Made by a program: the position numbers and the translations under genes. This document shows, in pieces, positions 6,981 through 38,151 of a stretch of DNA of 64,000 nucleotides. Within the stretch, counting starts at the first letter, position 1; each line of letters begins with the position of its first letter. The notes below the pieces were generated by a model. The model searched no databases and was not told the origin of the DNA. It worked only from the letters and a program-made list of their open reading frames with translations. The stretch lies in assembly GCA_964362545.1 (NCBI GenBank), contig CAYIEM010000001.1:17424-81423 (forward strand), in the 5' to 3' direction. The DNA comes from an uncultured Candidatus Saccharibacteria bacterium. Lineage in GTDB: Bacteria; Patescibacteriota; Minisyncoccia; Phycocordibacterales; UBA9973.

Positions 6981-7841
6981 ATGCTTTCGCTTTATGTCGC
7001 CGCTTGGATTGCTTCCATTTCTTCTGGGTTTGAAGCAATTGTTGGTAAAATAATCAGCAAACATAGCGTCTCAAACCCGTGGCTTTTTAATTTCTTCTGG
7101 AGTTTTTTTGTTCTAATTGGAATTACTATATCGGGTTTTTGGTTCGGACTTGGTATTCCAGAAAAATGGACTTACATAATTTTTGGGTCTTTGATGTATG
7201 CTCTCGTCAAAATCTCTTTCACCTTAGCACTTTACAAAATTGATGTTTCAGTAATGGGTCCAATGTTTGCGCTACGTACTGTCATGGCTGTGTTAATCGG
7301 ATCTATTTTCCTCGGTGAAATACTTACGCCATACCAATACTTACTTATAGGAATAGTTTTTCTAGCTGGGATATTTGTCAGTCTAGATGAAAGATTGAAC
7401 TTGAAATCGTTTTTCAATAAGTGGATAGGTGTATTGCTTATTTGTATGCTTTGTCTTGTATTTTTGGCTATGTTTATTAAAAAATCTTCAACCGTAAACG
7501 ATTTTTGGGATACTATTGTTTGGGTCGCTCTCCTGGGTCAGATTTGGCTTCTTTTTACTGTGAAATTTTTCAAAAAAGATTTAATCCTGACCACTCCACA
7601 ACAATACGGCTATATCGGAGTCATGGCTCTCATAGGAACAATTACTAGTATTTTCGCTAACTTTGCATACTCTAAAAATATCAGCTTATCGGCAGTAATA
7701 ATCTCTCTCCCCATTTCTATGGTTTTAGCCTTCCTTCTTTCCAGATTTGTGCCAGAGCTCCTCGAAAAACATACCCTCAGAATTTATGCGATCAGGTTTG
7801 TAGCGGCTGCTGTGATGATAACAGTAGCGTTGAATTTATAG
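6981..7841 (+). CDS. DMT/EamA-like membrane transporter
   Basis: 286 aa, about 10 predicted TM helices, two-repeat architecture typical of EamA/DMT family. Confidence 0.5.
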   Translation: MLSLYVAAWIASISSGFEAIVGKIISKHSVSNPWLFNFFWSFFVLIGITISGFWFGLGIPEKWTYIIFGSLMYALVKISFTLALYKIDVSVMGPMFALRTVMAVLIGSIFLGEILTPYQYLLIGIVFLAGIFVSLDERLNLKSFFNKWIGVLLICMLCLVFLAMFIKKSSTVNDFWDTIVWVALLGQIWLLFTVKFFKKDLILTTPQQYGYIGVMALIGTITSIFANFAYSKNISLSAVIISLPISMVLAFLLSRFVPELLEKHTLRIYAIRFVAAAVMITVALNL

Positions 7842-8094: not shown

Positions 8095-8937
8095 TTATTC
8101 CAATATCTCAAAATCACTTCCTGGACTTTCTCCTCGGGGTTGTTGCCTGTTGCGGTAACGAATGTAGTATGCTGCGCCTGCACCGATTCCAGTGAGAACA
8201 ATTAGTCCGACAACGCTAGACCATAGATTATTCGCTGTATCCAAATCGTTCTCGATAACCTCTGCTAATAAATTTTCAGCCGGTATCTCCATTTCTTTTT
8301 TTGGCAATTCTTCTATTGGTAAAACTTGCTTTTCTTTTTTGATAGAAACTTGAACATCTTTCTTTGGAGCATCCACAGTTTTGGGTATTTTTATTGAAGC
8401 AGGGCTCGGAGTTGGAGTTTTAATCGGTTCGATAATTTTATTCTCCATCCCTGGAGTAGGCGAAGCGGCAACCCAAAAATTTACTTTTCTTTGTAGAGAT
8501 TTACCATCTCCTTTAGCCCCCAAGGAAGAATTGTAAACATATTGATCAATAATATTTAAATCTTTGTCTTTGAGCGCCAAAGTTTCCCCACTATTGCCTA
8601 ACGAGAAAGTCGAATCGAAGATAGTTCCAGAAAAACTAGGCCAATCTGCCCTAAATTTAACCGGATTAGAAGCAATCACCGCATAGCTCTGCGCCTCGAT
8701 ATTTTGATTTCCCTGAAACAAAATGAGTTTGTGATTCGTGTCCGCTTCAAAAAATCTATAAGATGCTAAGTCCACTGACACATTCCCATTATTGAATATT
8801 TCGATCCACTCTCTACCATCGTCGGTACCTGTCTTTAGATCATACATTACTTCGTTTATCAAGAGTTCGGCCTGCGCTAGATTGAAAGAAAAAAATGCAA
8901 TAAGTCCTAAATGAAATAAAATTGTTTTCCTAAACAT
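8095..8937 (-). CDS. Membrane-anchored lamin-tail-domain (LTD) protein
   Basis: Signal peptide (MFRKTILFHLGLIAFFSFNLAQA), LTD signature LLINEVMYD...GREWIEIFNNGNVSVDLASY...GETLAL, Pro/Thr linker, C-terminal TM helix plus basic tail. Confidence 0.6.
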   Translation of the reverse strand: MFRKTILFHLGLIAFFSFNLAQAELLINEVMYDLKTGTDDGREWIEIFNNGNVSVDLASYRFFEADTNHKLILFQGNQNIEAQSYAVIASNPVKFRADWPSFSGTIFDSTFSLGNSGETLALKDKDLNIIDQYVYNSSLGAKGDGKSLQRKVNFWVAASPTPGMENKIIEPIKTPTPSPASIKIPKTVDAPKKDVQVSIKKEKQVLPIEELPKKEMEIPAENLLAEVIENDLDTANNLWSSVVGLIVLTGIGAGAAYYIRYRNRQQPRGESPGSDFEILE

Positions 8938-10034: not shown

Positions 10035-10205
10035 ATGGCTATAGAATCAACTCCCGAAAGTAAAAAAGACCTGCTGGAGAGAATAAATGTAGAAATACAA
10101 ATGTACGAGGATGAAATAAAGAAGAGAGAAAGTAGAGGAGAAGATGTTTCGCACCTTAGAGTAAGCTTAGAAAGTTTAAGAGAACAGGCTGGAAAACTAA
10201 AATAA
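10035..10205 (+). CDS. Hypothetical 56-aa coiled-coil protein
   Basis: Hand-translated ORF not in track: MAIESTPESKKDLLERINVEIQMYEDEIKKRESRGEDVSHLRVSLESLREQAGKLK*. Followed 30 nt later by an intrinsic terminator. No clear SD. Confidence 0.25.
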   Translation: MAIESTPESKKDLLERINVEIQMYEDEIKKRESRGEDVSHLRVSLESLREQAGKLK

Positions 10206-10234
10206 GAAGACTGCAAAAGAACAACGAAAAAAAA

Positions 10235-10261
10235 CCGGCTAGCTTAGCCGGTTTTTATTTT
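10235..10261. terminator. Bidirectional rho-independent terminator
   Basis: Stem CCGGCTA/TAGCCGG with 3-nt loop, A8 run upstream and TTTTTATTTT downstream. Lies between the convergent small ORF/PfkB unit (+) and the transposase (-). Confidence 0.6.
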
Positions 10262-10339
10262 CAGCACTCTTTTCACCGCCTTTTTGATATCCTTCACCCC
10301 CATGCCGTAATGCTCGATGAGCTCATCCAGCTTGAACTT

Positions 10340-10358
10340 GACAAGGTTAAACCTTGTC
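10340..10358. repeat. REP-like 19-bp palindrome copy 1 (GACAAGGTTAAACCTTGTC)
   Basis: 9-bp stem GACAAGGTT/AACCTTGTC around a single A. Overlaps the 3' end of the transposase gene. Confidence 0.8.
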
Positions 10359-11075
10359 CGCGTTGTTGTCCGCGCTGTCTTCGTTAGCATCCTTAAACTT
10401 CAGCCATTCCTTTACAAAATCTCCAAAATCCAACTTGGAGCTAAAGTATTCTGGAAATTCCGATACGTCAATAATTTTGCTTTCTACCCTACTGACCCCA
10501 GCGAGATCCAAGTAACTGGAATATCTATATTCGCTCAGGTATTTTTCCGATTCATGCAGATTTTTAATTCCATTCTCTTTCCACTCAGGGTCGATTAATT
10601 TAACTGGATTTAAGTTTATATAAGCAAAAAGATATTTCAAATATTCGTCTTTCGTCACATGCTTCGCCTTAAAAGTACCTTGGAAAAGCGAACCATTTCT
10701 GTCGTTCTTCTTGTTGAAATACATCGTGTAAGCTGTTTGCAATTTTTGCATGAACTTACTAACCCCATTGTCTACCCTCTCTTTAATCAATAAATGAAAA
10801 TGGTTTGGCATCAAACAAAATGCGCCTATACTAACCAATGTTTCTTTTCTATCCATTTGAAAAATCTCGGACAAGGTTAAACCTTGTCTTAACTGGTCGC
10901 CAATATCCACCCTTTCGTAACTGTTGCATGAGTAAAGCAGAACCAGAAAACGCGAGTAATCATTCGCGTTTGTAAAAATTTTCCTTTTATCAGTACCTCT
11001 GTTATATAGATGGTAATATTCGCCTATTGAGAATTCCAAGTTTCTTGTCATGCATACATGATAACTAAAAAACAA
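10347..11075 (-). CDS. IS200-like / REP-associated tyrosine transposase (Y1 HUH, COG1943)
   Basis: EYYHLYNRG...DYSRFLVLL...AFCLMPNHFHLLIKE (HUH motif)...MQKLQTAYTMYFNKKNDRNGSLFQGTFKAKHV...YINLNPVK. Start may be the internal MTRNLEF. Confidence 0.75.
   Translation of the reverse strand: MFFSYHVCMTRNLEFSIGEYYHLYNRGTDKRKIFTNANDYSRFLVLLYSCNSYERVDIGDQLRQGLTLSEIFQMDRKETLVSIGAFCLMPNHFHLLIKERVDNGVSKFMQKLQTAYTMYFNKKNDRNGSLFQGTFKAKHVTKDEYLKYLFAYINLNPVKLIDPEWKENGIKNLHESEKYLSEYRYSSYLDLAGVSRVESKIIDVSEFPEYFSSKLDFGDFVKEWLKFKDANEDSADNNADKV
10870..10888. repeat. REP-like palindrome copy 2, inside the transposase coding sequence
   Basis: Exact 19-mer. Encodes RQGLTLS in-frame within the tnp ORF. Confidence 0.8.
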
Positions 11076-11081
11076 GATTTT

Positions 11082-11100
11082 GACAAGGTTAAACCTTGTC
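11082..11100. repeat. REP-like palindrome copy 3
   Basis: Exact 19-mer immediately upstream of the tnp start and abutting the tkt C-terminal-subunit stop. Confidence 0.8.
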
Positions 11101-12099
11101 CGGTTTATTTCGATCGAGGATTTTATGCGCTGCTTTTTGGATGTCCTTCACCCCCATTCCGTAATGCTCGATGAGTTCGTCGGGTGTACCGGACTGGCCG
11201 AATTTGTTTTGCACCCCGATGAATTCCATCGGCACCGGGTAATTTTGCGCGAGCACCTCGGCAACTACGCTCCCCATGCCGCCGGAAACTTGGTGTTCTT
11301 CGACTGTAATAATCGCTTTGCACTCTTTTGCCAAAGCTATGATGGCTTCGTCGTCTGTCGGCACGATTGATGACAGATTCATTACTTTAGTTTTTACACC
11401 TTCCGTCTCCAATTCTTTAGCCGCGAGCATCGCGCGGTGAACAAGCGCGCCGGTGGCGATGATTCCGACATCTGCTATCCCGACATCCGGAATCCAAAAT
11501 ACCCGCGCCTTGCCTATTTCAAAAGGAGTTTCTTCAGTAGTTATGATAGGTGTCTTCTCTCGAGCCAGACGCAGGTATGCCGGCTTTTTGGTTTTAGCGA
11601 GAACAAGCGTCACCTTTTTTGCCTCTATGCTATCGCACGGGCTAAGCACATCCATATTGGGAAGCACTCGCATCAGCGCGATGTCTTCAAGCGCTTGGTG
11701 CGTGCCACCATCAGGACCCACAGAAATACCCGCGTGCGAACCGACTATCACCACCTTTCTGTCGTTGTAAGCAATCGTCGTCCTTATTTGTTCCCAATTG
11801 CGCCCTGGAGAAAACATCGCGTAAGAAGAACAAAAAGGAATTTTACCCATAGCGGCCATCCCCGAAGCCACAGTCACCAAATTCTGCTCCGCCACACCTA
11901 CTTCAATAAATCTCTCCGGAAATTTTTCTTTGAAAAAATGCATTTGCGTAGACTCCGTCAAATCCGCGCAAAGCGCCACCACATTTTTATCCGCCTCTCC
12001 TGCCAACACGAGTCCCTGCCCGAAACCTTTGCGAATAGGCGCCTGTTCGCAGTCTTGATTGAAAATCTTCGGATTTAATTTTAATGCTGGGTTTAACAT
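11089..12099 (-). CDS. tkt: Transketolase, C-terminal (pyrimidine-binding) subunit
   Basis: 336 aa. FGQGLVLAGEADKNVVALCADLTEST...IEVGVAEQNLVTVASGMA, typical split-Tkt subunit B. Confidence 0.85.
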   Translation of the reverse strand: MLNPALKLNPKIFNQDCEQAPIRKGFGQGLVLAGEADKNVVALCADLTESTQMHFFKEKFPERFIEVGVAEQNLVTVASGMAAMGKIPFCSSYAMFSPGRNWEQIRTTIAYNDRKVVIVGSHAGISVGPDGGTHQALEDIALMRVLPNMDVLSPCDSIEAKKVTLVLAKTKKPAYLRLAREKTPIITTEETPFEIGKARVFWIPDVGIADVGIIATGALVHRAMLAAKELETEGVKTKVMNLSSIVPTDDEAIIALAKECKAIITVEEHQVSGGMGSVVAEVLAQNYPVPMEFIGVQNKFGQSGTPDELIEHYGMGVKDIQKAAHKILDRNKPDKV

Positions 12100-14480: not shown

Positions 14481-14957
14481 TTATTCTATTTTTATTTTAT
14501 CTATTTTACCTAGACGACGAACATGTCTCTCGTCCCCAGAAAAAGGAGTGTCGAGCCAAAGATTAACTGCGCTCATTATGTTGTCTTCTGTAAAATATCT
14601 GGCACCCAAGGAAAGAATGTTTGAATTGTTGTGCTGCCTTGAACGTATTATGATGTCTGAATCATTGTCTACGACTGGCTTCGCATTACCATAGTCTACG
14701 ACAGCCCTGACATGAGGAAACTTATTGGCGGTAATCGCCTCCCCTTCTCCTGTACCGCCTAAAACAATTCCCCTGACATTTTCTGAATCCTTCGATACCT
14801 CCTCTGCCACAGGAATGACAAAATCTGGATAGTCATCGTGCTCGTTGTATTCGTATGCGCCCTTGTCTATGACCTCATGTCCCTGAAGTTTTAAAGAAGA
14901 TACGATCTTCTCCTTAAATACATAACCAGCGTGATCTGTGCCAATAAAAATTTTCAT
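14481..14957 (-). CDS. rpiB: Ribose-5-phosphate isomerase B
   Basis: MKIFIGTDHAGYVFK... RpiB/LacAB family, 158 aa. Confidence 0.85.
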   Translation of the reverse strand: MKIFIGTDHAGYVFKEKIVSSLKLQGHEVIDKGAYEYNEHDDYPDFVIPVAEEVSKDSENVRGIVLGGTGEGEAITANKFPHVRAVVDYGNAKPVVDNDSDIIIRSRQHNNSNILSLGARYFTEDNIMSAVNLWLDTPFSGDERHVRRLGKIDKIKIE

Positions 14958-16671: not shown

Positions 16672-18402
16672 ATGAAAAAAATTTTAATAGCAATCGCCCT
16701 ACTTTCCATAAGTCCGTATGCAAACGCGACTGACATTTCTTACACAATTATCGAAAATGTATCGAAAAAAAGTGCTTCAATTGTGGTCAATAATATTATA
16801 AAGAAAACAAATTACTTATGTAATCTTTCCACTTACAAATGCGAAAAAACTAGAGAACAAAATACAGAACGAATAGAAAACCCGCTGAAAAAAATAACCC
16901 TCTCTTTCTTGGAAGACAGGGATGAAAATTTGGCAAAAGCTGAGAAAAAGCAAAAAGATATTAAACCTCCTACTACAATACCTACGCCAAATCCGCAAAA
17001 AAGCTACGGAAAATTCACTATACCCAAAAAAGCAACTCACGTAACAATTTCGCCCGACAATAAGAAAATTGCTTATTTTCTTGAAGAAGGAGACATGGTG
17101 GTGACAGCTAGAAAATTCGTCATCAAACTTGATAACGGTAAAAAAATAGAGTATTCCGGTACAACTAATAATCTTGAATTATTAAGAAACTATGAAGAAC
17201 TTTTTGCATTCACTGAAGATAGTTCTAAACTTGTTTACCTAGATGACCGAGCTGGCTTTGCACAATTATACCTAGTAGATTTTAAACAAAAACCAAAAAA
17301 TCTATCAGGTAGACAAATTATAAAAAAACCATATACCGTCTACGATTTCGCGGTCAAAGAAGAAAAAGTCTACTATATCGCAAACCGACAAGAACCCAAC
17401 AAGTGGGATCTTTATTCTCTCGGACTTAATAATAACAAGTTAAACACCATAAGCGAAGATGTGATGTATACTAACAAACTCACATTCACTGGTGATAATC
17501 TGTTATTCACTGAAAATGAACGAGGTACTGGAGTACTAAAAAGTTTTAATATAAAAGAAAAGAAAATAAAAAATTTTATCGGCATAGAACAGGAAAAGGT
17601 GGAAATAGAAAAAATTATTCGTGAAAATATTTTCACAGAAAATCTAAAAGGTATTCTTTTGAAACCCGATAAAAATACAGATCAAAAGAAAACTATTATT
17701 TGGCTTCACGGCGGACCATATAGACAAGCAAGCCCTTTAAGACACTCATGGGGTAGCTATACAACTTATGATTGGATATTGGATGAAATTGTGTTAGCTG
17801 GTATCACCGTTCTGAAACTTGATTATCCCGGGAGTATGGGTTATGGCAAAGATTATAGTTTAAGCTTGGTAAATAATATCGGCGTAATTGACGTAAAAAA
17901 TGTTGAGGAAGCTATCGCTTATCTGAACAATTTGGGATTAAGAGAAATTTACCTTTTCGGCAATAGTTATGGTGGTTATTTAGCGCTGAAGGGTTTAACA
18001 AAACTCGACTCAAAACTTTCAGGTGCTTTAGCGGTAGCGCCAGTAACCGATTGGCAAAAACTGATAGAAAAAGTACATCCGACTCCATTTGAGGCATATT
18101 TAAGAGGAATTCCGAACGAAAAAAATCAGGATATACACGACCGATCAAGCGTAATCAATAATCTTGAAAAAATAAGCAAACCGATTGTGCTCTTCCACGG
18201 AGAACTTGATAACCAGGTTCCGTTCAGTCAGTCTGAATATTTATTCAAGGAAGCTAAAAGTGTCGGTAAGAACATCCAATACTACTCGATACTTGGAGAG
18301 AAACATGTGATAAGCGGAGTATCGCAAAACGAAGCGATATGTAAAAAAGTTGCTGATTTTATAGGAATTAAGTCAACTGAAAATATTTGTATTATGGAAT
18401 AA
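16672..18402 (+). CDS. Secreted S9-family serine peptidase (prolyl oligopeptidase/dipeptidyl peptidase fold) with N-terminal beta-propeller
   Basis: Signal peptide. C-terminal alpha/beta-hydrolase domain with nucleophile elbow GNSYGGYLA and LHGGPY. Confidence 0.7.
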   Translation: MKKILIAIALLSISPYANATDISYTIIENVSKKSASIVVNNIIKKTNYLCNLSTYKCEKTREQNTERIENPLKKITLSFLEDRDENLAKAEKKQKDIKPPTTIPTPNPQKSYGKFTIPKKATHVTISPDNKKIAYFLEEGDMVVTARKFVIKLDNGKKIEYSGTTNNLELLRNYEELFAFTEDSSKLVYLDDRAGFAQLYLVDFKQKPKNLSGRQIIKKPYTVYDFAVKEEKVYYIANRQEPNKWDLYSLGLNNNKLNTISEDVMYTNKLTFTGDNLLFTENERGTGVLKSFNIKEKKIKNFIGIEQEKVEIEKIIRENIFTENLKGILLKPDKNTDQKKTIIWLHGGPYRQASPLRHSWGSYTTYDWILDEIVLAGITVLKLDYPGSMGYGKDYSLSLVNNIGVIDVKNVEEAIAYLNNLGLREIYLFGNSYGGYLALKGLTKLDSKLSGALAVAPVTDWQKLIEKVHPTPFEAYLRGIPNEKNQDIHDRSSVINNLEKISKPIVLFHGELDNQVPFSQSEYLFKEAKSVGKNIQYYSILGEKHVISGVSQNEAICKKVADFIGIKSTENICIME

Positions 18403-18474: not shown

Positions 18475-19266
18475 ATGAAAGAAGGGCTTAAATTCTACAA
18501 ATATCACGGCGCCGGGAATGATTTTATCATGATAGACAATCGTGGTGAATGTTTTGATGTTAAAGATGTGGAAAAAATAAAGTTTCTCTGCCACAGACGT
18601 TTTGGTATCGGCGCAGATGGAATGCAGATCGTGCAAAATCATCCAGATTATGATTTTGAAATGATATTTGTAAATTCAGACGGGAGTATGGGCTCGATGT
18701 GCGGCAACGGCGGGCGCTGTATTGTTCACTACGCGCACTACGTTCTTAAAATGATCAAAGACCCAAAGCATGTGAAGTTTCTCGCCCCAGACGGAGAACA
18801 TGAAGCAGAAATAAATGAAGAAATAATTAGGCTCAAAATGCGAGATATGGCTAACGTGACAGAGCGCAATGGTTTGCCTTTCGTCTATTGTGGTACTACC
18901 CCGCATAATATAAAGTTCGTGGAAAATCTAGAAAACTTCCCTGTATTTCCTGAAGGTAAAAAGCTAAGATATTCCGACCCGGATGGAGTCAATGCGAATT
19001 ATGTTGAAATAAAAAACGGCGTATTTAACGTTCGAACTTATGAACGTGGTGTGGAAGACGAAACGATGGCCTGCGGCACGGCTGCCACATCCGTAGCTAT
19101 CATTTCGCATAAACTTGGGATTTTGAAAGAAAATATTTGCCACATCAAAATGCCCGGTGGTAATCTCACAGTAGAATTTGAACCTTGCGTTAGGCAAGAC
19201 CTAACGACATACAAAAACATCTGGCTCACCGGTCCGGCCGTGTGCGTGTTTGAGGGAAAAATTTGA
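18475..19266 (+). CDS. dapF: Diaminopimelate epimerase
   Basis: YHGAGNDFIMIDN and MCGNGGRC catalytic Cys motifs. Confidence 0.85.
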   Translation: MKEGLKFYKYHGAGNDFIMIDNRGECFDVKDVEKIKFLCHRRFGIGADGMQIVQNHPDYDFEMIFVNSDGSMGSMCGNGGRCIVHYAHYVLKMIKDPKHVKFLAPDGEHEAEINEEIIRLKMRDMANVTERNGLPFVYCGTTPHNIKFVENLENFPVFPEGKKLRYSDPDGVNANYVEIKNGVFNVRTYERGVEDETMACGTAATSVAIISHKLGILKENICHIKMPGGNLTVEFEPCVRQDLTTYKNIWLTGPAVCVFEGKI

Positions 19267-26928: not shown

Positions 26929-27786
26929 ATGCAGTATGGCCAAGATAAAAAACTCAATTTCGCATTCTGGGGTACTCCAGATGTAGCGGCGGAAACCTTA
27001 GAGATTCTGAAAAGAAACGGTTATTTACCGTCTCTTGTTATCACTTCCCCTGATAAACCGCAGGGGCGGAAAATGATAGTTACTCCCACGCCCGTAAAAG
27101 TTTGGGCGATTGAGAATAATGTTCCATATTTGCAACCAGAGAAGTTAGAGCAAGAAGAAATCTGGAGTGTTTTGAGAACTCATAACCCTCTTCTCTTCTT
27201 GGTAGTCGCCTACGGGAAAATAATCCCAGAGAAAATAATCAATTTGCCCAAGTTGGGTTCTATCAATATTCACTATTCTCTGTTACCGAAATATCGCGGA
27301 GCTTCCCCAGTAGAAAGCGCTATCTTAAGTGGCGATGAAGAAACAGGAGTTACTATCCAAAAAATGGAATACAAAATGGACACTGGCCCTGTGGTGGCAG
27401 AAGAAAAAGTGGAAATAGGGCCGGATGAAAAAGCAACAGATTTGCGTAAGCGCTTAATAAAAATAGGAGGAGAACTTTTAGTAAAAACCTTGCCAGACTT
27501 TATGAATGGAAAAGTAACTCCAATACCACAAGACGAGAATCTAGCCACCTACTGCAAAAAAATAAAAAAAGAAGACGGGCTTGTCGACTTGGCGACCGAA
27601 CCGCCAAGCACGCTGTACAACAAATTTCGCGCCTATGCCACTTGGCCCAGAACCTATTTTTTCCAAAACGGCAAACGAATAATCATAACCGACGCTACAT
27701 TAGAAAACGGACAATTTGTAATCAAAAAAGTCTTACCTGAAGGAAAGAAGGAAATAAGCTGGAAAGAGTTTTCCAGACAAGGTTAA
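26929..27786 (+). CDS. fmt: Methionyl-tRNA formyltransferase
   Basis: HYSLLPKYRGASPVESAILSGDEETGVTI formyltransferase motif. Stop codon lies inside the REP-like palindrome. Confidence 0.85.
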   Translation: MQYGQDKKLNFAFWGTPDVAAETLEILKRNGYLPSLVITSPDKPQGRKMIVTPTPVKVWAIENNVPYLQPEKLEQEEIWSVLRTHNPLLFLVVAYGKIIPEKIINLPKLGSINIHYSLLPKYRGASPVESAILSGDEETGVTIQKMEYKMDTGPVVAEEKVEIGPDEKATDLRKRLIKIGGELLVKTLPDFMNGKVTPIPQDENLATYCKKIKKEDGLVDLATEPPSTLYNKFRAYATWPRTYFFQNGKRIIITDATLENGQFVIKKVLPEGKKEISWKEFSRQG

Positions 27787-27798
27787 ACCTTGTCTGGA
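27774..27798. repeat. REP-like palindrome copy 4 (extended 12-bp stem CCAGACAAGGTT-A-AACCTTGTCTGG)
   Basis: Contains the exact 19-mer. Sits between convergent fmt and hpf and encodes the last residues (RQG) and TAA stop of fmt. Confidence 0.8.
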
Positions 27799-31501: not shown

Positions 31502-32005
31502 CTATTTTTTTATCTTTTTCGAGTATTCCCTTAAAAGCTCCGAGGAACTTCTCACTTTGCCCCCACGCCCAATATTAAAGACCATTTCAATACCCAATCT
31601 TTCGCACGTTTCTACATCATAATATAAAGAGGAATTCGGATTTCTGGCGTCTTCTTCATTTCTATCTCCCCCATTTGCAAAGACATGCGGTTTGATTTTA
31701 AACAATTCTTTGCTCACGCTCATATTCTTGGGACCTTTCGGATTTCTAGAATGTCCACTAATAATTACCCCATCTACACAAGCCAAAGCTTCTATAATCT
31801 CTTTGCGTTCGTGATCAGGCATAAAGACATGCTTCCTTTTTTGTCTTTTCCAATTATCATTATTTATGATAACAATTAATTTATCTCCCAATTTTTTAGC
31901 TTCCTGAAACATACGAATATGCCCGATATGAAGCGGGTCAAAACCACCGCTGACTGCCACCACTTTTTTATTTTTCCTGTTTTTGTTCTTCTTAGTAAAT
32001 GACAT
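31502..32005 (-). CDS. Cytidylyltransferase-like (HxGH) nucleotidyltransferase domain protein
   Basis: VVAVSGGFDPLHIGHIRMF HIGH-type motif of the CTP/ATP transferase superfamily (TagD/RfaE-II/PPAT-like). Basic N-terminal tail. Confidence 0.5.
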   Translation of the reverse strand: MSFTKKNKNRKNKKVVAVSGGFDPLHIGHIRMFQEAKKLGDKLIVIINNDNWKRQKRKHVFMPDHERKEIIEALACVDGVIISGHSRNPKGPKNMSVSKELFKIKPHVFANGGDRNEEDARNPNSSLYYDVETCERLGIEMVFNIGRGGKVRSSSELLREYSKKIKK

Positions 32006-32064
32006 TTTTTATTTTTATTTCTTTAATTTGCTAGATTTTCTGCGATAGCAGAATTTCTAGCACT

Positions 32065-33861
32065 TTAATACACTTCCTGTTGATAACATTTCTCACAGTA
32101 AACTATTTCTGGTCTGTCTGGTGCATAACCAGTTTTGAATTTCTCATTGCAAGGATTATCTCCATGCTCATGACTTACTGTGTTTTGATAAACACCAGTA
32201 CTGTCTTTCTCTCCCGCGCACATACAGGACCGTTCGTATAAACCTACCTTTAACCTGTCACTTATTCTGCGCTCGTGCCTACATTCACCGCAAATACGTG
32301 GTATCGACAATTTTTCCTTTTTAAAAAATAAAAATTCATTCTCTAGAATTTTATACGGATTTTTACATTCCTTACATTCTACTACTTCTTTTAAAATATT
32401 ATCGCTGACTTCGTTGATTGAATTTTCAAGCTCTGTTGCCTTTTTTGTCATTTTATAGTTGCCCCGGGACACTTCTATCCACGTATATCCTTTTTTCCTT
32501 GCTTCTGCTTCTGTTAGCGAAAAATGCTGCATCGCGACAGTATTGTTGTAACCGAGTGGAGAAAGTTCGGTAGGAAAAAATTCTCCATATTTATAAGTCA
32601 AACCCTGTGAATCTGTGTAAGGCATTTCATCCATGTGTTTTTTTATTTTGGGCACAAGTTTTTCATACTCTTCTTTAGAATATTGTTTGTTTAAAATACA
32701 ATACTGTTTCTTTTTTAAACCAACACAACCAAAGCAGTCTGAAGAACTAAAAAGGTGCGTACAATATTCATTGTTCCTTGAAGATGGCCAGCAACTGCGC
32801 GAGAATTTATTATTGTAAGAATTGTCTCCGCATTCTAAAGTTTCATAATTCATTTCGGTATGATCCCCCCAATTACAAGAATCATAATTATCTTTGTTGC
32901 CCGGAACTTGCATATATTGGCAATAGCGCATATTTTCGCTTTCTCTGATAAGATAACTGTCGTTTACGTTTTTGCAATTAGTGACATAAGATCCGGAAGA
33001 ATTTAAGTTTTTTAAACCCTGAAGATATTTGAAGGGAAAGGTGTTCCAAAAATTTCTGGCTTTTATTCTGGAGGCTTCAATGCTCAAGGCTGTATCAAGA
33101 TTCATTTTTTTCAATTCTTTAAAATATTCCTCCTTTGCGTATTTTTTATTAAAAATACAATATGAAGAATTGCGCAGATTAGCGCAACCGAAACAATTAT
33201 GACACGAAACACAATCCTTGCAAAACCACAAATCCCTGGAATCTGAAGACATTATTGTGAAATAGCACTGATAACAATTTTCTAACCAAAGACATTCGTA
33301 GCAACGCTCGGAATGTTTTACGTGAGAATTATCGACACAATCTTTACAAGAATCTATCCCGTTTCCATACATACAATCTTCAGAATCATTTGAGTTAACA
33401 ATCAAGTAACTATTCTTTACATAAGAAGCATTGAAAACATATGGACTATTGACAATTCCAATATTATTAAAGTTATATACCGGTACAACTTTATTTAATT
33501 CCTCAATTTGGATTAAAAACGGCTTCGTGAAGTCAATATCCACACTATACTTTATTGCATCAAAGTTGTCTCCGAACCATTCTTCTCTGGTCATTATTTT
33601 CCGACCACTTTCTTTTGGATATGAGGAAAAAATCTCTTTGCCTGTCAAAAAATTGACAACTTTGAAAAGTTTGCGCTCATTTCTCCAAGCCAACCTCCTC
33701 TGCGCCCGGCACAAGGGACAAAAAGTTGGTGGCGGCACCTGCATTTTTTCATAAAAAGAAAAATCATCCGGCTCAATGATGAAGTCTTTTTTACAGTTCT
33801 GGCAGTTTTTTGTTTCGTCTTGCATATCTTTTGCTTTTTGCCCTGTGGTGAATTCTAGCAT
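32065..33861 (-). CDS. Cys-rich repeat protein, paralog A (unknown function)
   Basis: 598 aa, about 50 Cys, no signal peptide. True start probably M13 (MQDETKNCQNC, ATG 33823-33825) by comparison with paralogs. Shares N-terminal CQNCKKxFxIEPDDFxFYxxxxVPPP..CP.CR..RR and C-terminal YxPDRPEI(V/I)YCExCY(Q/K)QEVY with paralogs B and C. Confidence 0.5.
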   Translation of the reverse strand: MLEFTTGQKAKDMQDETKNCQNCKKDFIIEPDDFSFYEKMQVPPPTFCPLCRAQRRLAWRNERKLFKVVNFLTGKEIFSSYPKESGRKIMTREEWFGDNFDAIKYSVDIDFTKPFLIQIEELNKVVPVYNFNNIGIVNSPYVFNASYVKNSYLIVNSNDSEDCMYGNGIDSCKDCVDNSHVKHSERCYECLWLENCYQCYFTIMSSDSRDLWFCKDCVSCHNCFGCANLRNSSYCIFNKKYAKEEYFKELKKMNLDTALSIEASRIKARNFWNTFPFKYLQGLKNLNSSGSYVTNCKNVNDSYLIRESENMRYCQYMQVPGNKDNYDSCNWGDHTEMNYETLECGDNSYNNKFSRSCWPSSRNNEYCTHLFSSSDCFGCVGLKKKQYCILNKQYSKEEYEKLVPKIKKHMDEMPYTDSQGLTYKYGEFFPTELSPLGYNNTVAMQHFSLTEAEARKKGYTWIEVSRGNYKMTKKATELENSINEVSDNILKEVVECKECKNPYKILENEFLFFKKEKLSIPRICGECRHERRISDRLKVGLYERSCMCAGEKDSTGVYQNTVSHEHGDNPCNEKFKTGYAPDRPEIVYCEKCYQQEVY

Positions 33862-33876
33862 ATGCTAGAATTCACC
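33847..33876. promoter_or_regulatory. Perfect 30-bp palindrome GGTGAATTCTAGCATATGCTAGAATTCACC
   Basis: Self-complementary over all 30 nt. Centred on the annotated ATG of paralog A, about 21 nt upstream of the more likely start. Confidence 0.5.
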
Positions 33877-33894
33877 GCGCTTAAATGTCATTCC

Positions 33895-35610
33895 TCAGTA
33901 TACTTCTTGTTTGTAACAACTTTCGCAATACACTATTTCGGGTCGGTCGGGAGAGTAGGAAGTCTCTATTGCTATATCGCATTTGTCACATTTGCGATTA
34001 TAAGTTTGCATTCCATTTAATTGCTTGATACGAGCTCTATCTCGACAAAGCGGGCAATGGCGCGGAATAGGTAAATTAAAACGTTTCAAGAACTGTAATT
34101 CTTTGGGGATTATCTGATAATTCTTCCCACATGCCTCACATTTCAAAATCGCCTTCAAAACATCGTCTGTGACATCTTTAATATGGTCGGGCAATATAAT
34201 GGTAGCATCTAAATATTCTCGTTGGTCAGGATCCCGCCAGGCAAAACCTCTCCCTATGGCCTCTTCTTTAGTGAGCGGAAAGAATTCGTAGGCAGTGGAC
34301 TCATTGTATGGCCAGGGACACAAATCAATTGGTATCTGTCCACCATACTTGTGCTCTAGTCCCCTTCTGTCAATGAAAGGAACTTCCATCATTTGTTTTT
34401 TAATTTTTTCAACCAATGGGAAATATTCTTCTTTGGTATATTGTTTATTAAAAATGCAATATTCGGCCTTTCGCAAACCGACGCAACCAAATAAATATCC
34501 ACATCCATGACAGCCAAAAGTATATTCCGTATCGTGATTGCGATAATTCCAGACGCTGAATTTTACATTGGAAGTATTATACCCCGTCCAAGTCGCCTCA
34601 TAGACCCATTCTGAAGTGGTGCCAAAAGCGGTAAAATCATAACAATTGTGCGCTGGACCCTTCAAAAACAGTTGCGCATATTTCAAATTTTCCGAGTCAG
34701 GAACATAGTACGCGTTATGAACATTCTTTGAATTATAAATATATTCTCCAGAGATGTTGTTGTTATTCCTGCCCAAAGTCGCCCGACGCGGATAATTTAG
34801 TGAAAAAGCATATGCCTGTTTTTTTAGTTTTTGTAAATTTTTTGCAGATCCCAAGTCAAATTCTTTTAATTTTTTAATATACTCTTCTCTTGTAAATTGT
34901 TCATTAAAAATGCAGTAATTTTTATTGCGCAAGCTTGTACAGCCAAAACAATCCCCGCAATTAATCAAATCGCGCGAAAAATAAATGTTTTGACAATTTT
35001 CACAATCCTGCGAGAAAAAAGTCTGGAAACATTTGCGAACATCTACTATCTCATAACAGAGTTCTGGGTCTGCTGAATATGCCACCTCTAGAGAATCTTT
35101 GGTGTTTAAAGCGACATTAGTATACGCAGAATCTTCGCCAGTAATATGTTTAAAACACAGGTAATCATTTTTTTGGAAACTGGCGGCATTGCAATATTCG
35201 CTATTCACCATAGTGCTGTATTCCGTATGAAGCGACGCTTTGGGAACCTCATCCATCAATTCTTTAAATTGTTCAAAAAAGGATCTAGAAAAATCATATT
35301 CCCTGCCGTAACTTTTCGGATCCCATTTGTCACCCCACCAAATATCTTGTTTATATACTTTATACGGTAAATCCGGATGGTAGAACGTGATAATATTCTC
35401 TCCGGTAAAATCACATTTGCGTTTGTATAATATCCTATAACCGTACCAAGCCATTCTGCGAAGCAACCTGCAATGCGGGCACCACACGGGAGGCGGCACT
35501 TTCATCTGCTCATAAAATCCAAAATCGTCTGGTTCAATAATGAAGTTTTTTTTACAGTTTTGACATTGTTTAGTTTCACTTTGTGTATTCATTTTGTCGT
35601 TTTGCAACAT
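33895..35610 (-). CDS. Cys-rich repeat protein, paralog B (unknown function)
   Basis: 571 aa. Likely start M7 (MNTQSETKQCQNC). Internal repeats CxNCxxIYFSRDLINCGDCFGCTSLRNKNYCIFNEQFTREEY and CHGCGYLFGCVGLRKAEYCIFNKQYTKEEY. Confidence 0.5.
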   Translation of the reverse strand: MLQNDKMNTQSETKQCQNCKKNFIIEPDDFGFYEQMKVPPPVWCPHCRLLRRMAWYGYRILYKRKCDFTGENIITFYHPDLPYKVYKQDIWWGDKWDPKSYGREYDFSRSFFEQFKELMDEVPKASLHTEYSTMVNSEYCNAASFQKNDYLCFKHITGEDSAYTNVALNTKDSLEVAYSADPELCYEIVDVRKCFQTFFSQDCENCQNIYFSRDLINCGDCFGCTSLRNKNYCIFNEQFTREEYIKKLKEFDLGSAKNLQKLKKQAYAFSLNYPRRATLGRNNNNISGEYIYNSKNVHNAYYVPDSENLKYAQLFLKGPAHNCYDFTAFGTTSEWVYEATWTGYNTSNVKFSVWNYRNHDTEYTFGCHGCGYLFGCVGLRKAEYCIFNKQYTKEEYFPLVEKIKKQMMEVPFIDRRGLEHKYGGQIPIDLCPWPYNESTAYEFFPLTKEEAIGRGFAWRDPDQREYLDATIILPDHIKDVTDDVLKAILKCEACGKNYQIIPKELQFLKRFNLPIPRHCPLCRDRARIKQLNGMQTYNRKCDKCDIAIETSYSPDRPEIVYCESCYKQEVY

Positions 35611-35635
35611 ATTTGAATATTCTCATTCTATAATT

Positions 35636-35935
35636 CTATAGAATATTAGAATAGTTATTCATAAATTTATAAGAAAAGGGTTCCGCGTATTTTTCTAAAA
35701 CAATTCTCTCGTATTTATCTAGCTTATCAAATCCTAGAATAAAATTCTTAACCACATTCCATTCTTCTCTCCCAGCAGGAATTATATCTCTAAAATTTAA
35801 TATTTTATTTACAATGTCTAATGAACGAATCTGAGCATTTTGCGCGGCCTCTATTTTCCCAGAATCTAAAAAGGAAAACATTCTTCTGATTTCCGGATAT
35901 AAGTTTGCCATATAAAAAAGCGAATCTTTTTTCAT
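35636..35935 (-). CDS. Hypothetical 99-aa protein interposed in Cys-rich paralog cluster
   Basis: Co-directional and tightly spaced. No homology recognised. Confidence 0.4.
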   Translation of the reverse strand: MKKDSLFYMANLYPEIRRMFSFLDSGKIEAAQNAQIRSLDIVNKILNFRDIIPAGREEWNVVKNFILGFDKLDKYERIVLEKYAEPFSYKFMNNYSNIL

Positions 35936-35980
35936 AATTTTCTATTCTAATATTCTATAGAATTATAGAATACTTTCCCC

Positions 35981-36352
35981 TTACTTCTTCAAATCAATAA
36001 ACTTATGAATAATCTCCCTGGCTTTTTTCATTATCTCTTCATTGCCTATATTCCTGGAGCGGTTGCCAAAATTTGGTTTTATGTTAACCATGGAATCGAA
36101 CTCCAAAGCCCCATTCGGATTTTCCTCAAAGCGAATATTGAAACCCCAAATATCTTCAAATTTTGAACCAGTACCCGTCAACAACTCAGAACCCTCGATA
36201 TGATAGTCACCGCCTAAAGCAACTCTGCCAATCTCTATATCGACAGCCCCTTTTATCATAGTTCCATACCAAAAATCCGCCAATCTCTTTACCTCCTCTA
36301 TAAAAATTTTATGGTCTAGAATCGTTATCTTCGTATCCATATTTGTGAGCAT
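35981..36352 (-). CDS. Hypothetical 123-aa protein interposed in Cys-rich paralog cluster
   Basis: Co-directional and tightly spaced. No homology recognised. Confidence 0.4.
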   Translation of the reverse strand: MLTNMDTKITILDHKIFIEEVKRLADFWYGTMIKGAVDIEIGRVALGGDYHIEGSELLTGTGSKFEDIWGFNIRFEENPNGALEFDSMVNIKPNFGNRSRNIGNEEIMKKAREIIHKFIDLKK

Positions 36353-36384
36353 TTTAGCACGATTCTAGCTTGATTGAAAGAATG

Positions 36385-38097
36385 CTAGTACACCTCCTGC
36401 TGATAACACTTTTCGCAATAGATTATTTCTGGACGGTCGGGTGTATAAGAAGTTTTGAATTTATTATCGCATCCTTCTTTCATGCAAGACCTTTCCCAAA
36501 GTTTTAACGGATTTCTTAGTTTCAAACGTTCATAATGCCTGCAGTTTGGACAAAGTCTCGGCAACGGCAAGTTCATTCTCTTGTAAAATTTAAGCTCTTC
36601 AGAAACTATTTTAAATGCCTCGGTACATTGATCTTTGCATTTGCCTCCGTGGCTACAGGCTATGACCTTGCTTATTATGTCGTCTGAAACATCTTTTATA
36701 TTGTCAGGTATATCTTCGTTTTCTATGTCTATTTTATAATTCCTAACCTCTCTATCTTGCCACAGGTATCCCTTCGCTAAAGCCTCTTCCTTAGTCAGCG
36801 GAAAATATTCTTGCGCGATAGTTTCGTTATAAGCAAACGGTGAAAGTTCTGAGGGAAAAAATTCACCGTATTTGTAAACTATTTCTCTCTTGTCTATGTA
36901 AGGCATTTCCTCCATGTGTTTGATAATTTTTGGCAACAATTGTTCATATTCTTCCTTGGTATATTGTTTGTTTAGGATACAATAACTTTTCTTTCGTAAA
37001 CCTTCACAACCGAAGATATTTGAACAATCATGACACTCTTCGTTATAACGAGAGTCGTGATTTGAGTGATTCTTTACACCAAAAGCCGTATTCGAACCAC
37101 TAAAACCATGGGCTATTTCATATAGTAACTCAGCGCCAAAACCTTGAAATGATGTGTCATAACAATCTTTTGATTTATTTCTACAGAAAAAAAGATACTT
37201 CGAATCTTCCACTTGTCGAGAACTGAAAGCATTGTGGGTGTTGCGGGCTTCAAACAAATCGTCTCCAGTAGAATTAACAGATTTATAAACCTGAGCATAG
37301 CGACGAGGTATGGTCAACGCCAAGTCGTATAATCTCTTTCTAATATCAGCATGAGATTTTAAACCGCCTAAGTTGATTTTTTCTATAAATTTTTGATATT
37401 CTTCTTTTGAAAATTGTTGGTTAAAAACATTGTGTTGTTTGTTGCGTAAGCCCACACACCCGAAACAACTTAAACAATTCTTGCAATCTAGAAGATACCA
37501 GCTGTCTACACAATCTTCAGAATAAGAACTGAAAAATAATTTATTGGTCCTGGCGCACTCAAAAAGCTCATAACTAAATTCCAATTTTTCAGAAAACGCC
37601 ACATCCAGAGAGTCTTTGGAATCAAACAATTGATTTGCGAAATAAACTCTTTCGTTATTGATACCTCCAAATACAAGGTAGCATTCCTTCATGTCAAGCC
37701 CATAATTGCAATACTCACTAGAAATGAAATTTGTTTGATACATATTTTCTCTAGGCACTGCAACCTGAAGCGCGCGAAATTGGGTAAAAAATGGTACAGA
37801 AAAATCATGTTCTTTCCCATAACTTAAAGGGTCCCACTTATCGGAAAGCCAACACTCACGACAATAGATGGTATATGGTTTGTCTTTGGAATAAATAGTT
37901 AGAAGATTTTTTTTACACATACCACATTCACGTCTATAAAAAACCCTATTATTACGGAACAACAATCTTCTTTGAAACCTGCAATCCGGGCAAAATGTCG
38001 GTGGAGGCACTTTTATTTTTTGGTAAAAATTAAAATCATCCGGTTCGATAGTAAAATCTTTCTTGCAATTTTGACATACCTTCGTCTCAGAATTCAT
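36385..38097 (-). CDS. Cys-rich repeat protein, paralog C (unknown function)
   Basis: 570 aa. MNSETKVCQNCKKDFTIEPDDFNFYQKIKVPPPTFCPDCRFQRR...CYQQEVY. Same architecture as A and B. Confidence 0.5.
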   Translation of the reverse strand: MNSETKVCQNCKKDFTIEPDDFNFYQKIKVPPPTFCPDCRFQRRLLFRNNRVFYRRECGMCKKNLLTIYSKDKPYTIYCRECWLSDKWDPLSYGKEHDFSVPFFTQFRALQVAVPRENMYQTNFISSEYCNYGLDMKECYLVFGGINNERVYFANQLFDSKDSLDVAFSEKLEFSYELFECARTNKLFFSSYSEDCVDSWYLLDCKNCLSCFGCVGLRNKQHNVFNQQFSKEEYQKFIEKINLGGLKSHADIRKRLYDLALTIPRRYAQVYKSVNSTGDDLFEARNTHNAFSSRQVEDSKYLFFCRNKSKDCYDTSFQGFGAELLYEIAHGFSGSNTAFGVKNHSNHDSRYNEECHDCSNIFGCEGLRKKSYCILNKQYTKEEYEQLLPKIIKHMEEMPYIDKREIVYKYGEFFPSELSPFAYNETIAQEYFPLTKEEALAKGYLWQDREVRNYKIDIENEDIPDNIKDVSDDIISKVIACSHGGKCKDQCTEAFKIVSEELKFYKRMNLPLPRLCPNCRHYERLKLRNPLKLWERSCMKEGCDNKFKTSYTPDRPEIIYCEKCYQQEVY

Positions 38098-38151
38098 CTA
38101 TTTATTATAACAAAACTAGTCAATTTTCCCAGTGTTTGGTACAATTTATTT

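Follow-up and report, generated by a model that had tools for sequence, protein, structure and literature searches.

The window analysed here is the whole 64-kb stretch of contig CAYIEM010000001.1 (positions 1 to 64,000). At 10340-11100 it holds a 761-bp unit whose only gene encodes a protein of the RAYT class, the tyrosine transposases associated with repetitive extragenic palindromes (REPs). Three copies of one 19-nt palindrome accompany the gene, the first upstream, the second within its reading frame and the third at its stop codon. We consider it probable that the unit is a REPtron-like cassette of a groundwater genome of Patescibacteria (Nomurabacteria/Paceibacteria-like), with a RAYT-class gene placed in three cognate stem-loops. 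Directly seen are the fold, the motifs, the three-hairpin layout with its conservation, the co-evolution of hairpin and gene, the few solo copies and the presence or absence of the cassette among relatives.

Hairpin Copies at the Locus

The 19-mer, GACAAGGTTAAACCTTGTC, is found exactly four times in the window (10340-10358, 10870-10888, 11082-11100, and 27776-27794), while shuffles of the window give a chance expectation of 0.01 matches. No additional copy with up to three mismatches is present in the window beyond these four, and the central base of all four is A on the plus strand. Three copies lie at the RAYT gene and one is solo. An earlier interpretation of this DNA (here the sequence-only reading) had described an identical 23-mer at both ends of the unit and two further 19-mers in the window. 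Both descriptions are correct: the 23-mer TTGACAAGGTTAAACCTTGTCCG forms direct repeats at 10338-10360 and 11080-11102 that bound the unit, and the copies at 10870-10888 and 27776-27794 are exact. The hairpin it proposed does fold, with an 8-bp stem and a 3-nt loop in place of the 9 bp that it gave (-7.1 to -7.2 kcal/mol for each single-stranded 19-mer). The copy at 27772-27798 is extended to a 12-bp stem (-12.6 kcal/mol). The features are as follows.

10230..10256, minus strand: predicted intrinsic terminator of the ancestral transketolase 3' end; 12-bp stem, then a T-run; now downstream of the RAYT gene
10244..10339, minus strand: tail A, putative displaced ancestral transketolase tail; abuts the foot of hairpin H3; encodes an end in ...DELIEHYGMGVKDIKKAVKRVLKIKTG followed by a stop
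10340..10358, minus strand: 3' hairpin H3; holds the RAYT stop codon (10347-10349)
10347..11051, minus strand: RAYT-class HUH-Y1 gene, 234 amino acids; only gene of the 761-bp unit; ATG at 11051; intact
10870..10888, minus strand: internal in-frame hairpin; codons 55-61; peripheral loop between helices 50-55 and 60-63 in the model
11058..11086, minus strand: promoter-like site TTGTCA-17-TATCAT, 5' of the RAYT ATG; a consensus match only, 10/12
11082..11100, minus strand: upstream hairpin H1; holds the stop codon of the transketolase C-half (11089-11091); its arm TTGTCA is a -35-like hexamer
11101..11181, minus strand: tail B, 3' tail of the transketolase C-half in current use; distal part derived
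27772..27798, plus strand: solo hairpin with 12-bp stem between the convergent genes fmt and hpf; supplies the fmt stop (after RQG)

Stop codons lie within three of the copies, such that the transketolase C-half ends in KPDKV in the 11082 copy, the RAYT protein in ADKV in the 10340 copy and the fmt product in SRQG in the 27776 copy. The 10870 copy sits in frame within the RAYT open reading frame (ORF) and encodes RQGLTLS. At the three gene ends in the window, the hairpin copies are not followed by a T-tract on the strand of the gene. Owing to T-rich tails, a scan scored two copies as terminator-like, among them one on the strand antisense to both genes. We reject the reading of the hairpins as terminators; the true terminator is at 10230-10256. 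Rfam assigns no family at gathering score anywhere in the 64 kb, and hence the hairpin does not correspond to a known RNA motif. The TTGTCA-17-TATCAT-type arrangement recurs in one related locus, L006, and is absent from another, L015, where the spacing is not kept. A conserved promoter with its -35 element in the hairpin arm thus holds for the window and L006, fails in L015 and is not relied on here.

The Protein Belongs to the RAYT Class

The motifs from which the sole gene had been called a Y1 HUH transposase are all present in the 234-residue ORF, which hits Pfam Y1_Tnp with 45.3 bits (E 1.1e-11; cut-off 23). The HUH motif is H84-F85-H86 (NHFH, residues 83-86), and the tyrosine is Y144 in YINLNP (Y144-I-N-L-N148-P149). 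The catalytic-type tyrosine is lacking from none of 57 aligned homologues, among which H84, F85, H86, Y144, N148, and P149 are invariant. An AlphaFold2 model (pLDDT 89.6) places the Y144 motif on helix 135-152 and residues 55-61, which derive from the internal hairpin, in a peripheral loop ahead of strand beta-2; the ~80 C-terminal residues form extra helices.

The best NCBIfam model is REP_Tyr_transpos (NF047646) with 52.7 bits, whereas the IS200 model (NF033573) gives 15.7 bits against a cut-off of 55. The top Foldseek match in the PDB is 4ER8_A (E 3.9e-6, TM 0.65 normalised to the target), the REP-associated tyrosine transposase of E. coli (TnpA-REP) in complex with a REP hairpin. The TnpA structures of IS608, ISDra2, and IS200 rank behind it. 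A profile search of PDB sequences yields no match at E <= 1 apart from a weak alignment (E 0.36) of the HUH motif with PDHVH of ISDra2 TnpA. Y---NP is the tyrosine signature of class 2, i.e., TnpA-REP (Quentin et al., 2018; PMC6006769). Owing to this motif, the higher score of REP_Tyr_transpos than of IS200 and the best fold match to 4ER8, the protein is placed in the RAYT class (TnpA-REP, TnpA-Y1 class 2) and not in the IS200 class, with catalysis predicted from sequence and model. The earlier label "IS200/RAYT-like" is thereby kept in its RAYT half and loses its IS200 half, for which the low model score, the identical ends and the single copy in the window leave no place.

Hairpin and Gene Co-Vary Across Patescibacteria

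The protein database contains 6,483 relatives of the RAYT protein at E <= 0.001. Among the best 120, all source names are Patescibacteria (Nomura-, Kaiser-, and Yonathbacteria, Paceibacterota, Minisyncoccia), in agreement with the lineage of candidate phyla radiation (CPR) type that had been guessed from the sequence. The nearest full-length relatives are just 74-75% identical. In the loci L001, L006, L015, and L037, with proteins 71-75% identical, the exact 19-mer is found upstream, at codon ~55 and at the stop codon. L003 and L049 have it at some of the three positions only, and variants or nothing elsewhere. Distant homologues carry other hairpins at the same three places, namely AAAGGACGGTCCTTT in L054, CGGAAGGTTTAACCTTCCG in L055, CCCGAGGTTCGACCTCGGG in L062, and CCCATAGGCGAGGCCTATGGG in L081.

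We compared 91 loci, comprising the window, nine close loci (L001, L003, L006, L015, L037, L049, and the like), the distant loci L053-L056 fetched by protein and 80 loci from a metagenome scan. A hairpin was counted if perfect, centred on AGG-N5-CCT and with a stem of at least 6 bp, which by our own arithmetic arises by chance about once per 260 kb. Hairpins of this kind are located within 200 nt upstream of the ATG in 74 of the 91 loci and at the stop codon, i.e., the 3' end, in 66. An internal one, in frame at nt ~152-187 of the coding sequence and at the same codon position, is present in 39. The 10870 copy, which the sequence-only reading took as a sign of dispersal, is therefore rather a conserved in-frame part of the gene. 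The cores of the upstream and 3' hairpins agree in 54/91 loci, which bears out the REPtron-like layout proposed earlier, in which the gene lies between copies of its own hairpin; the upstream core agrees with the internal one in 36/91.

At the stem positions left free by the hairpin filter, bases are Watson-Crick paired in 61 (inner) and 64 (outer) of 72 loci, compared with 27 and 20 in shuffles, and all four base-pair types are present. The peptide at the internal site tracks the hairpin sequence across lineages (RQGLTLSE, REGLTFTE, KGRSFPE, IQGLPLDK), with a near-invariant Gly57 encoded by the GG of AGG. A DKV C-terminus is found in 18/120 homologues. Hairpin and gene thus co-evolve by compensatory changes around an invariant AGG-N5-CCT core, and such palindrome-gene co-evolution is a defining trait of REP/RAYT systems. 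The invariant AGG/CCT might represent the common recognition element, while the outer stem would set lineage specificity.

The Transketolase Site

Just past the 10340 hairpin, the final ~85 nt of the transketolase (TK) gene are present a second time, ~80% identical to the first copy. Both hairpin feet abut the tail copies, and the 761-bp unit is exactly their separation; the stretch 10328-10339 beside tail A may belong to the tail copy. Compared with 97 related transketolase tails, tail A (10244-10327) is the closer one (8.0 vs 5.3 of 13 residues for tail B). The terminator and a small ORF follow it, as at the empty site. For these two reasons, tail A is, as far as sequence comparison can tell, the displaced ancestral end of transketolase. 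Tails A and B share lineage-specific synonymous states, and their identity falls from ~91% near the gene body to ~60% in the distal part (our count). No foreign donor for tail B is found among the 97 related transketolases. The small ORF encodes 56 amino acids (10035-10205, between PfkB and the transketolase terminator); a small ORF also occupies this position in L138 (66 amino acids), L139 (56), and possibly L055 (71).

The transketolase of the window is identical to database protein P0121. L139, which is a contig from Hainich groundwater, is arranged like the window. The comparison with relatives proposed in the sequence-only reading gives a divided answer. The TK/PfkB site is empty in L012, L041, L055, and L138, whereas the TK-N/TK-C/RAYT/PfkB neighbourhood also exists in L003 and L006, the L006 cassette lying 7 nt past the TK stop. 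The two closest transketolases found, P0122 and P0123, belong to L138 and L137 and are each 87% identical. At the empty site of L138, a decayed hairpin, AACAAGATTAAACTTTGTC, lies 6 nt after the TK stop, together with a T-run (1772-1830), and the hairpin inside its TK gene (~850) has one mismatch, GACAAGGTTTGACCTTGTC, which suggests that the L138 hairpins decayed after loss of the cassette. L137 (4283-4968) holds a different RAYT of 207 amino acids, on the opposite strand between TK-N and TK-C. Its hairpin, CTTGGTAGTCGGAGTACCAAG, is not of the AGG-N5-CCT type and occurs four times: upstream, at two in-frame sites within the gene and at the 3' end. No flanking duplication surrounds this intergenic cassette. 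Since the L138 site is empty and L137 holds a different RAYT, cassettes are gained, lost or replaced within ~13% transketolase divergence.

A second tail duplication is seen in L053, where a 68-nt copy of the RuvA 3' tail (7417-7483 and 8218-8284, 90% identical) flanks the RAYT cassette. The RuvA remnant is 3 nt from the upstream hairpin, and the design is the same as for the transketolase tails of the window. A classical target-site duplication is unlikely, given that the L137 cassette has none.

A small unit of 761 bp that holds a single Y1 gene between hairpin ends, an interrupted gene tail and variable presence among relatives are also what an autonomous minimal insertion sequence (IS) of the IS200/IS605 type would show, had it recently moved into transketolase by peel-and-paste single-strand transposition. 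We regard this as very improbable. The IS200 model score is far below its cut-off, the tyrosine motif is of the class 2 type (PMC6006769), and the end hairpins are identical and not a distinct left and right end. Furthermore, a tblastn search finds no second RAYT gene in the window, and related genomes have one 19-mer triad each in the genome scan described below. The ~80% identity of the tail copies points to an old event, and IS200/IS605 elements do not make target duplications.

The cassette could instead have come by homology-facilitated illegitimate recombination of transformed DNA and not through its own enzyme, a crossover in the transketolase gene and an illegitimate joint at the hairpin foot yielding the tail duplication. 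This is possible, although we hold it to be the less likely course. The identity gradient between tails A and B is as expected for it, and the RuvA duplication of L053 has the same one; it also accommodates the clean intergenic cassette of L137 and the position of the L006 cassette shortly after the TK stop. However, no donor-like tail is present among the 97 related transketolases, the shared synonymous states of tails A and B point to duplication within the genome, and there are just two clear cases, transketolase in the window and RuvA in L053. In the REPtron-like interpretation, the 761-bp unit would have entered the 3' end of the transketolase C-half, displacing the ancestral tail and terminator behind the H3 foot. 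The joint itself may stem from an enzyme-made junction at the hairpin foot followed by homologous resolution, from homology-facilitated illegitimate recombination of imported DNA or from an old duplication.

Solo Copies Are Few and Mostly Intragenic

An exact scan for the 19-mer in one genome per species (185,579 species) shows that the palindrome is not confined to the window. It returns 46 stretches: 36 are labelled Patescibacteria, 4 are from unclassified metagenome-assembled genomes and 6 are from other phyla, the last being singletons where ~4 chance matches are expected by our arithmetic. The most exact copies per genome are 7 (DATDVS01), then 6 (JACPXJ01), three gene copies included. 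The flanks of the 91 loci (458 kb) contain 31 AGG-N5-CCT hairpins outside cassettes, where ~2 would be expected (again our arithmetic), and ~20 of the 31 match the local cognate hairpin. The dispersed hairpin family is therefore tiny. The dispersed REP family envisaged by the sequence-only reading does exist outside the window, but it is neither large nor mainly extragenic. A scan of viral contigs found no 19-mer, and so there is no sign of a phage vector. At 4-7 copies per genome, the 19-mer is far too rare for uptake bias, and we reject a reading as DNA uptake sequence.

Most solo 19-mers in relatives are intragenic and in frame within long ORFs, where they encode QGLTLS, TRFNLV, TRLNLV, or DKVKPC. 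The host genes are those of transketolase, UvrC, MurI, LeuRS, a P-type ATPase and an aminopeptidase-like protein. Hairpin-free orthologues are equal in length for transketolase, MurI, UvrC, and the P-type ATPase, and differ by small indels for LeuRS, a second UvrC site and a Cys-rich family. That a hairpin unit was simply inserted is inadequate as an explanation, since most solo copies in relatives replace an equal length inside genes. In orthologous pairs that share the hairpin, none of its 19 bases is changed, while comparable flanks differ at 19-31 positions per 90 nt (21-34%). Of the 120 closest transketolases, 5 have the in-frame hairpin. They belong to three lineages, each with nearest neighbours that are without it; L041 is a fourth carrier.

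Correction of a quasi-palindrome from a half-site was considered for these copies. It is plausible in transketolase, where GQGL already encodes a GACAAGGTTTA-like sequence, and unsupported in MurI and the ATPase, whose hairpin-free orthologues are barely similar. Intragenic REPs are known (PMC3733652), and equal-length replacement with perfect conservation is unexplained in the literature that we consulted on them. Tentatively, and as an unlikely rather than a favoured proposal, the hairpin might overwrite resident DNA of equal length and be kept base-perfect by RAYT-dependent conversion or cassette exchange, not by simple insertion. This would fit the in-frame copies without length change in transketolase, MurI, UvrC, and the P-type ATPase, as well as the unchanged 19 nt beside diverged flanks. 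It would also fit the same transketolase codons being hit in at least three lineages with nearest neighbours lacking the copy, and the decayed copies of L138, which has no RAYT at the TK/PfkB site or on its 4-kb contig. If this holds, the in-frame copy in the RAYT gene would be an obligatory self-recognition site, and the cassette, on entering essential genes at their 3' ends, would provide a substitute for the tail (transketolase here, RuvA in L053). Such an integration mode is not described for HUH elements.

In L054, a Nomurabacteria locus with a RAYT 59% identical, the hairpins AAAGGAC[G/C]GTCCTTT form intergenic inverted doublets, 42-53 nt apart and REPIN-like (14810-14876 and 16754-16830).

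The palindromes might also be regulatory or structural, with a domesticated protein that binds them as operator or terminator, possibly as duplex dyads, and thereby controls its own gene and a few other loci; copies elsewhere would then be footprints of former cassette positions left by recombination between H1 and H3. The upstream copy overlaps the promoter-like site, other copies cover stop codons between genes, and L138 retains one decayed hairpin exactly where the cassette would be expected. The very low copy number and the generally domesticated appearance of RAYTs (PMC5581495) agree with this. Nevertheless, we judge it improbable. The in-frame internal copy and the solo copies in the genes of transketolase, UvrC, MurI, LeuRS, and the P-type ATPase are not in regulatory positions, and the hairpins at three gene ends lack a T-tract on the gene strand. 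Free co-variation of the stem fits structure and not base-specific duplex contacts. A regulatory role would, moreover, not exclude a REPtron-like cassette.

A Probable REPtron-Like Cassette

Taking the preferred interpretation of a REPtron-like cassette, the gene product would be a RAYT-class HUH-Y1 single-strand DNA endonuclease/transferase. Of its three stem-loops, one would overlap the promoter region, one would be encoded in a surface loop of the protein and one would lie at the stop codon. By analogy with the biochemistry of E. coli TnpA-REP and of the TnpA proteins of IS608 and ISDra2, the enzyme may bind the hairpin extruded in single-stranded DNA and cut and rejoin beside it, and this reaction could seed or maintain hairpin copies. 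By the same analogy, the protein would probably sense its own gene. Such autoregulation is plausible, as the upstream hairpin overlaps the promoter-like TTGTCA-17-TATCAT.

Several points weigh against this interpretation. The protein scores below the NF047646 equivalog cut-off (52.7 vs 80), and enzyme activity is predicted from sequence and model. A conserved 5' guide tetranucleotide of the GTAG kind is lacking from the hairpin: next to the 19-mer the sequence varies (cg, tt, ag, ca, and others), and the conserved part is the apical AGG-N5-CCT. Palindromy alone cannot separate a single-strand hairpin from a dyad-symmetric duplex site. Classical REP families are abundant, dispersed and extragenic, with tens to hundreds of copies per genome; hairpin copy number here is far lower, and most solo copies in relatives sit inside genes and replace an equal length of sequence. 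Finally, the TK/PfkB locus is occupied in L003 and L006 as well, so that inheritance might be partly vertical.

Comparison With Known Systems

Like the E. coli REPtron (TnpA-REP, 4ER8, REP and bacterial interspersed mosaic elements), the cassette combines the HUH-Y1 fold, for which 4ER8 is the best structural match, and the Y---NP motif with one gene flanked by cognate palindromes and a hairpin that co-evolves with the gene. In contrast to the E. coli system, its hairpin is without the GTAG guide tetranucleotide and has a short perfect stem of 8-9 bp with an AGG-N5-CCT core, the copies are few per genome instead of hundreds, and the protein has the C-terminal helical region of ~80 residues and a score below the equivalog cut-off. 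E. coli TnpA-REP belongs to subclass 2.2 (Quentin et al., 2018; PMC6006769). Classical REPs carry a conserved 5' tetranucleotide, GT[AG]G or CGTC.

In subclass 2.4 (RAYT group 4; Cyanobacteria/Bacteroidetes), REPs occur in frame inside the tnpA-REP gene (PMC6006769). The Patescibacteria cassette is similar in having a palindrome inside the gene, away from the catalytic site and with the reading frame intact. It differs in that there is one copy at a fixed codon position before the HuH motif, where the peptide x-G-x-[T/S/P]-[L/F] tracks the hairpin, and the motifs NHFH, FQ, YINLNP, and SS do not match this subclass.

Subclass 2.1 (RAYT group 1 of Bertels, TIRYT; PMC6006769, PMC5581495, PMC3733652) is listed with NH[YF]H, FQ, Y[IV]HLNP, SS, and a length of ~238 amino acids (Table 1 of PMC6006769). 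By eye, NHFH, LFQG, YINLNP (one residue off), YSSY, and 234 amino acids fit the published table, an assignment made from the published motifs only. The motif set and the length are thus similar by eye, and the low copy number of flanking repeats is shared. Unlike in subclass 2.1, the protein has no Pfam match to a Bac_DnaA_C or HTH C-terminal domain, and the GGGGWSAS repeat motif is absent. Subclass 2.1 is reported to be without REP-like hairpins at the gene, whereas the Patescibacteria clade has them upstream in 74 of 91 loci. Two distant homologues, L115 and L060, resemble TIRtrons in being flanked by longer repeats of 52-66 nt, inverted in L115 (2906-2970/3714-3778) and direct in L060 (2881-2932/3682-3732). 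The L115 repeats hold a perfect DnaA box, TTATCCACA, and those of L060 a box with one mismatch, a resemblance to the TIRYT/TIRtron type and to subclass 2.1, for which DnaA-like C-terminal domains are reported.

With IS200/IS605 elements (IS608, ISDra2), the cassette would share the Y1 HUH chemistry and the recognition of a subterminal hairpin in single-stranded DNA. It differs from them by its tyrosine motif, identical ends, single copy, poor IS200 score and lack of tnpB. In-frame palindromes in housekeeping genes, notably those of DNA repair (UvrC here), are reminiscent of intragenic REPs and of Rickettsia palindromic elements (PMC3733652). Both of those kinds add 20-80 residues, whereas in transketolase, MurI, UvrC, and the P-type ATPase the 19-mer stands in place of a stretch as long as itself.

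RAYT/REP in Patescibacteria

No other domesticated transposase that has its own population of short replicators is as well known as RAYT/REP. To our knowledge, work on such systems has been confined almost entirely to Proteobacteria and a few further phyla. In literature searches, RAYT/REP-associated transposases come up together with CPR/Patescibacteria in incidental mentions only, and a very large Patescibacteria RAYT clade has apparently gone undescribed. Its unusual traits are the fixed in-frame hairpin, the very low copy number, the equal-length intragenic solo copies and the duplicated gene tails. With 6,483 proteins, the clade shows REP/RAYT logic stripped down to a single gene with three fixed hairpins and to a few solo copies. 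As the genomes are of ~1 Mb, the copies few and the hairpin simple and perfect, recognition rules as well as copy gain and loss should be easy to trace by comparison, and the AGG-N5-CCT hairpin should suit oligonucleotide tests. Current REP/RAYT models give no explanation for equal-length in-frame copies in housekeeping genes and for cassettes that duplicate gene tails.

Other Features of the Window

At 19188-19206, the window holds CGTTAGGCAAGACCTAACG, an AGG-N5-CCT hairpin of another lineage whose core is identical to that of the L106 RAYT hairpin. It lies in frame within dapF (18475..19266, plus strand) and encodes CVRQDLT. As the window has no second RAYT gene, this hairpin is either a possible relic or might go with a RAYT located outside the window. 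At Rfam gathering score, positions 1-64000 contain neither tRNA nor rRNA nor any known riboswitch. At 32000-38100 there is a cluster of about six Cys-rich paralogues that end in ...EKCYQQEVY (repeat families D1-D6), and a member of this family in the relatives L010 and L039 carries the 19-mer in frame (DKVKPC). Inside the Cys-rich cluster, a 41-nt AT-rich inverted repeat (35625-35665/35931-35971) has arms that are 88% complementary and 265 nt apart.

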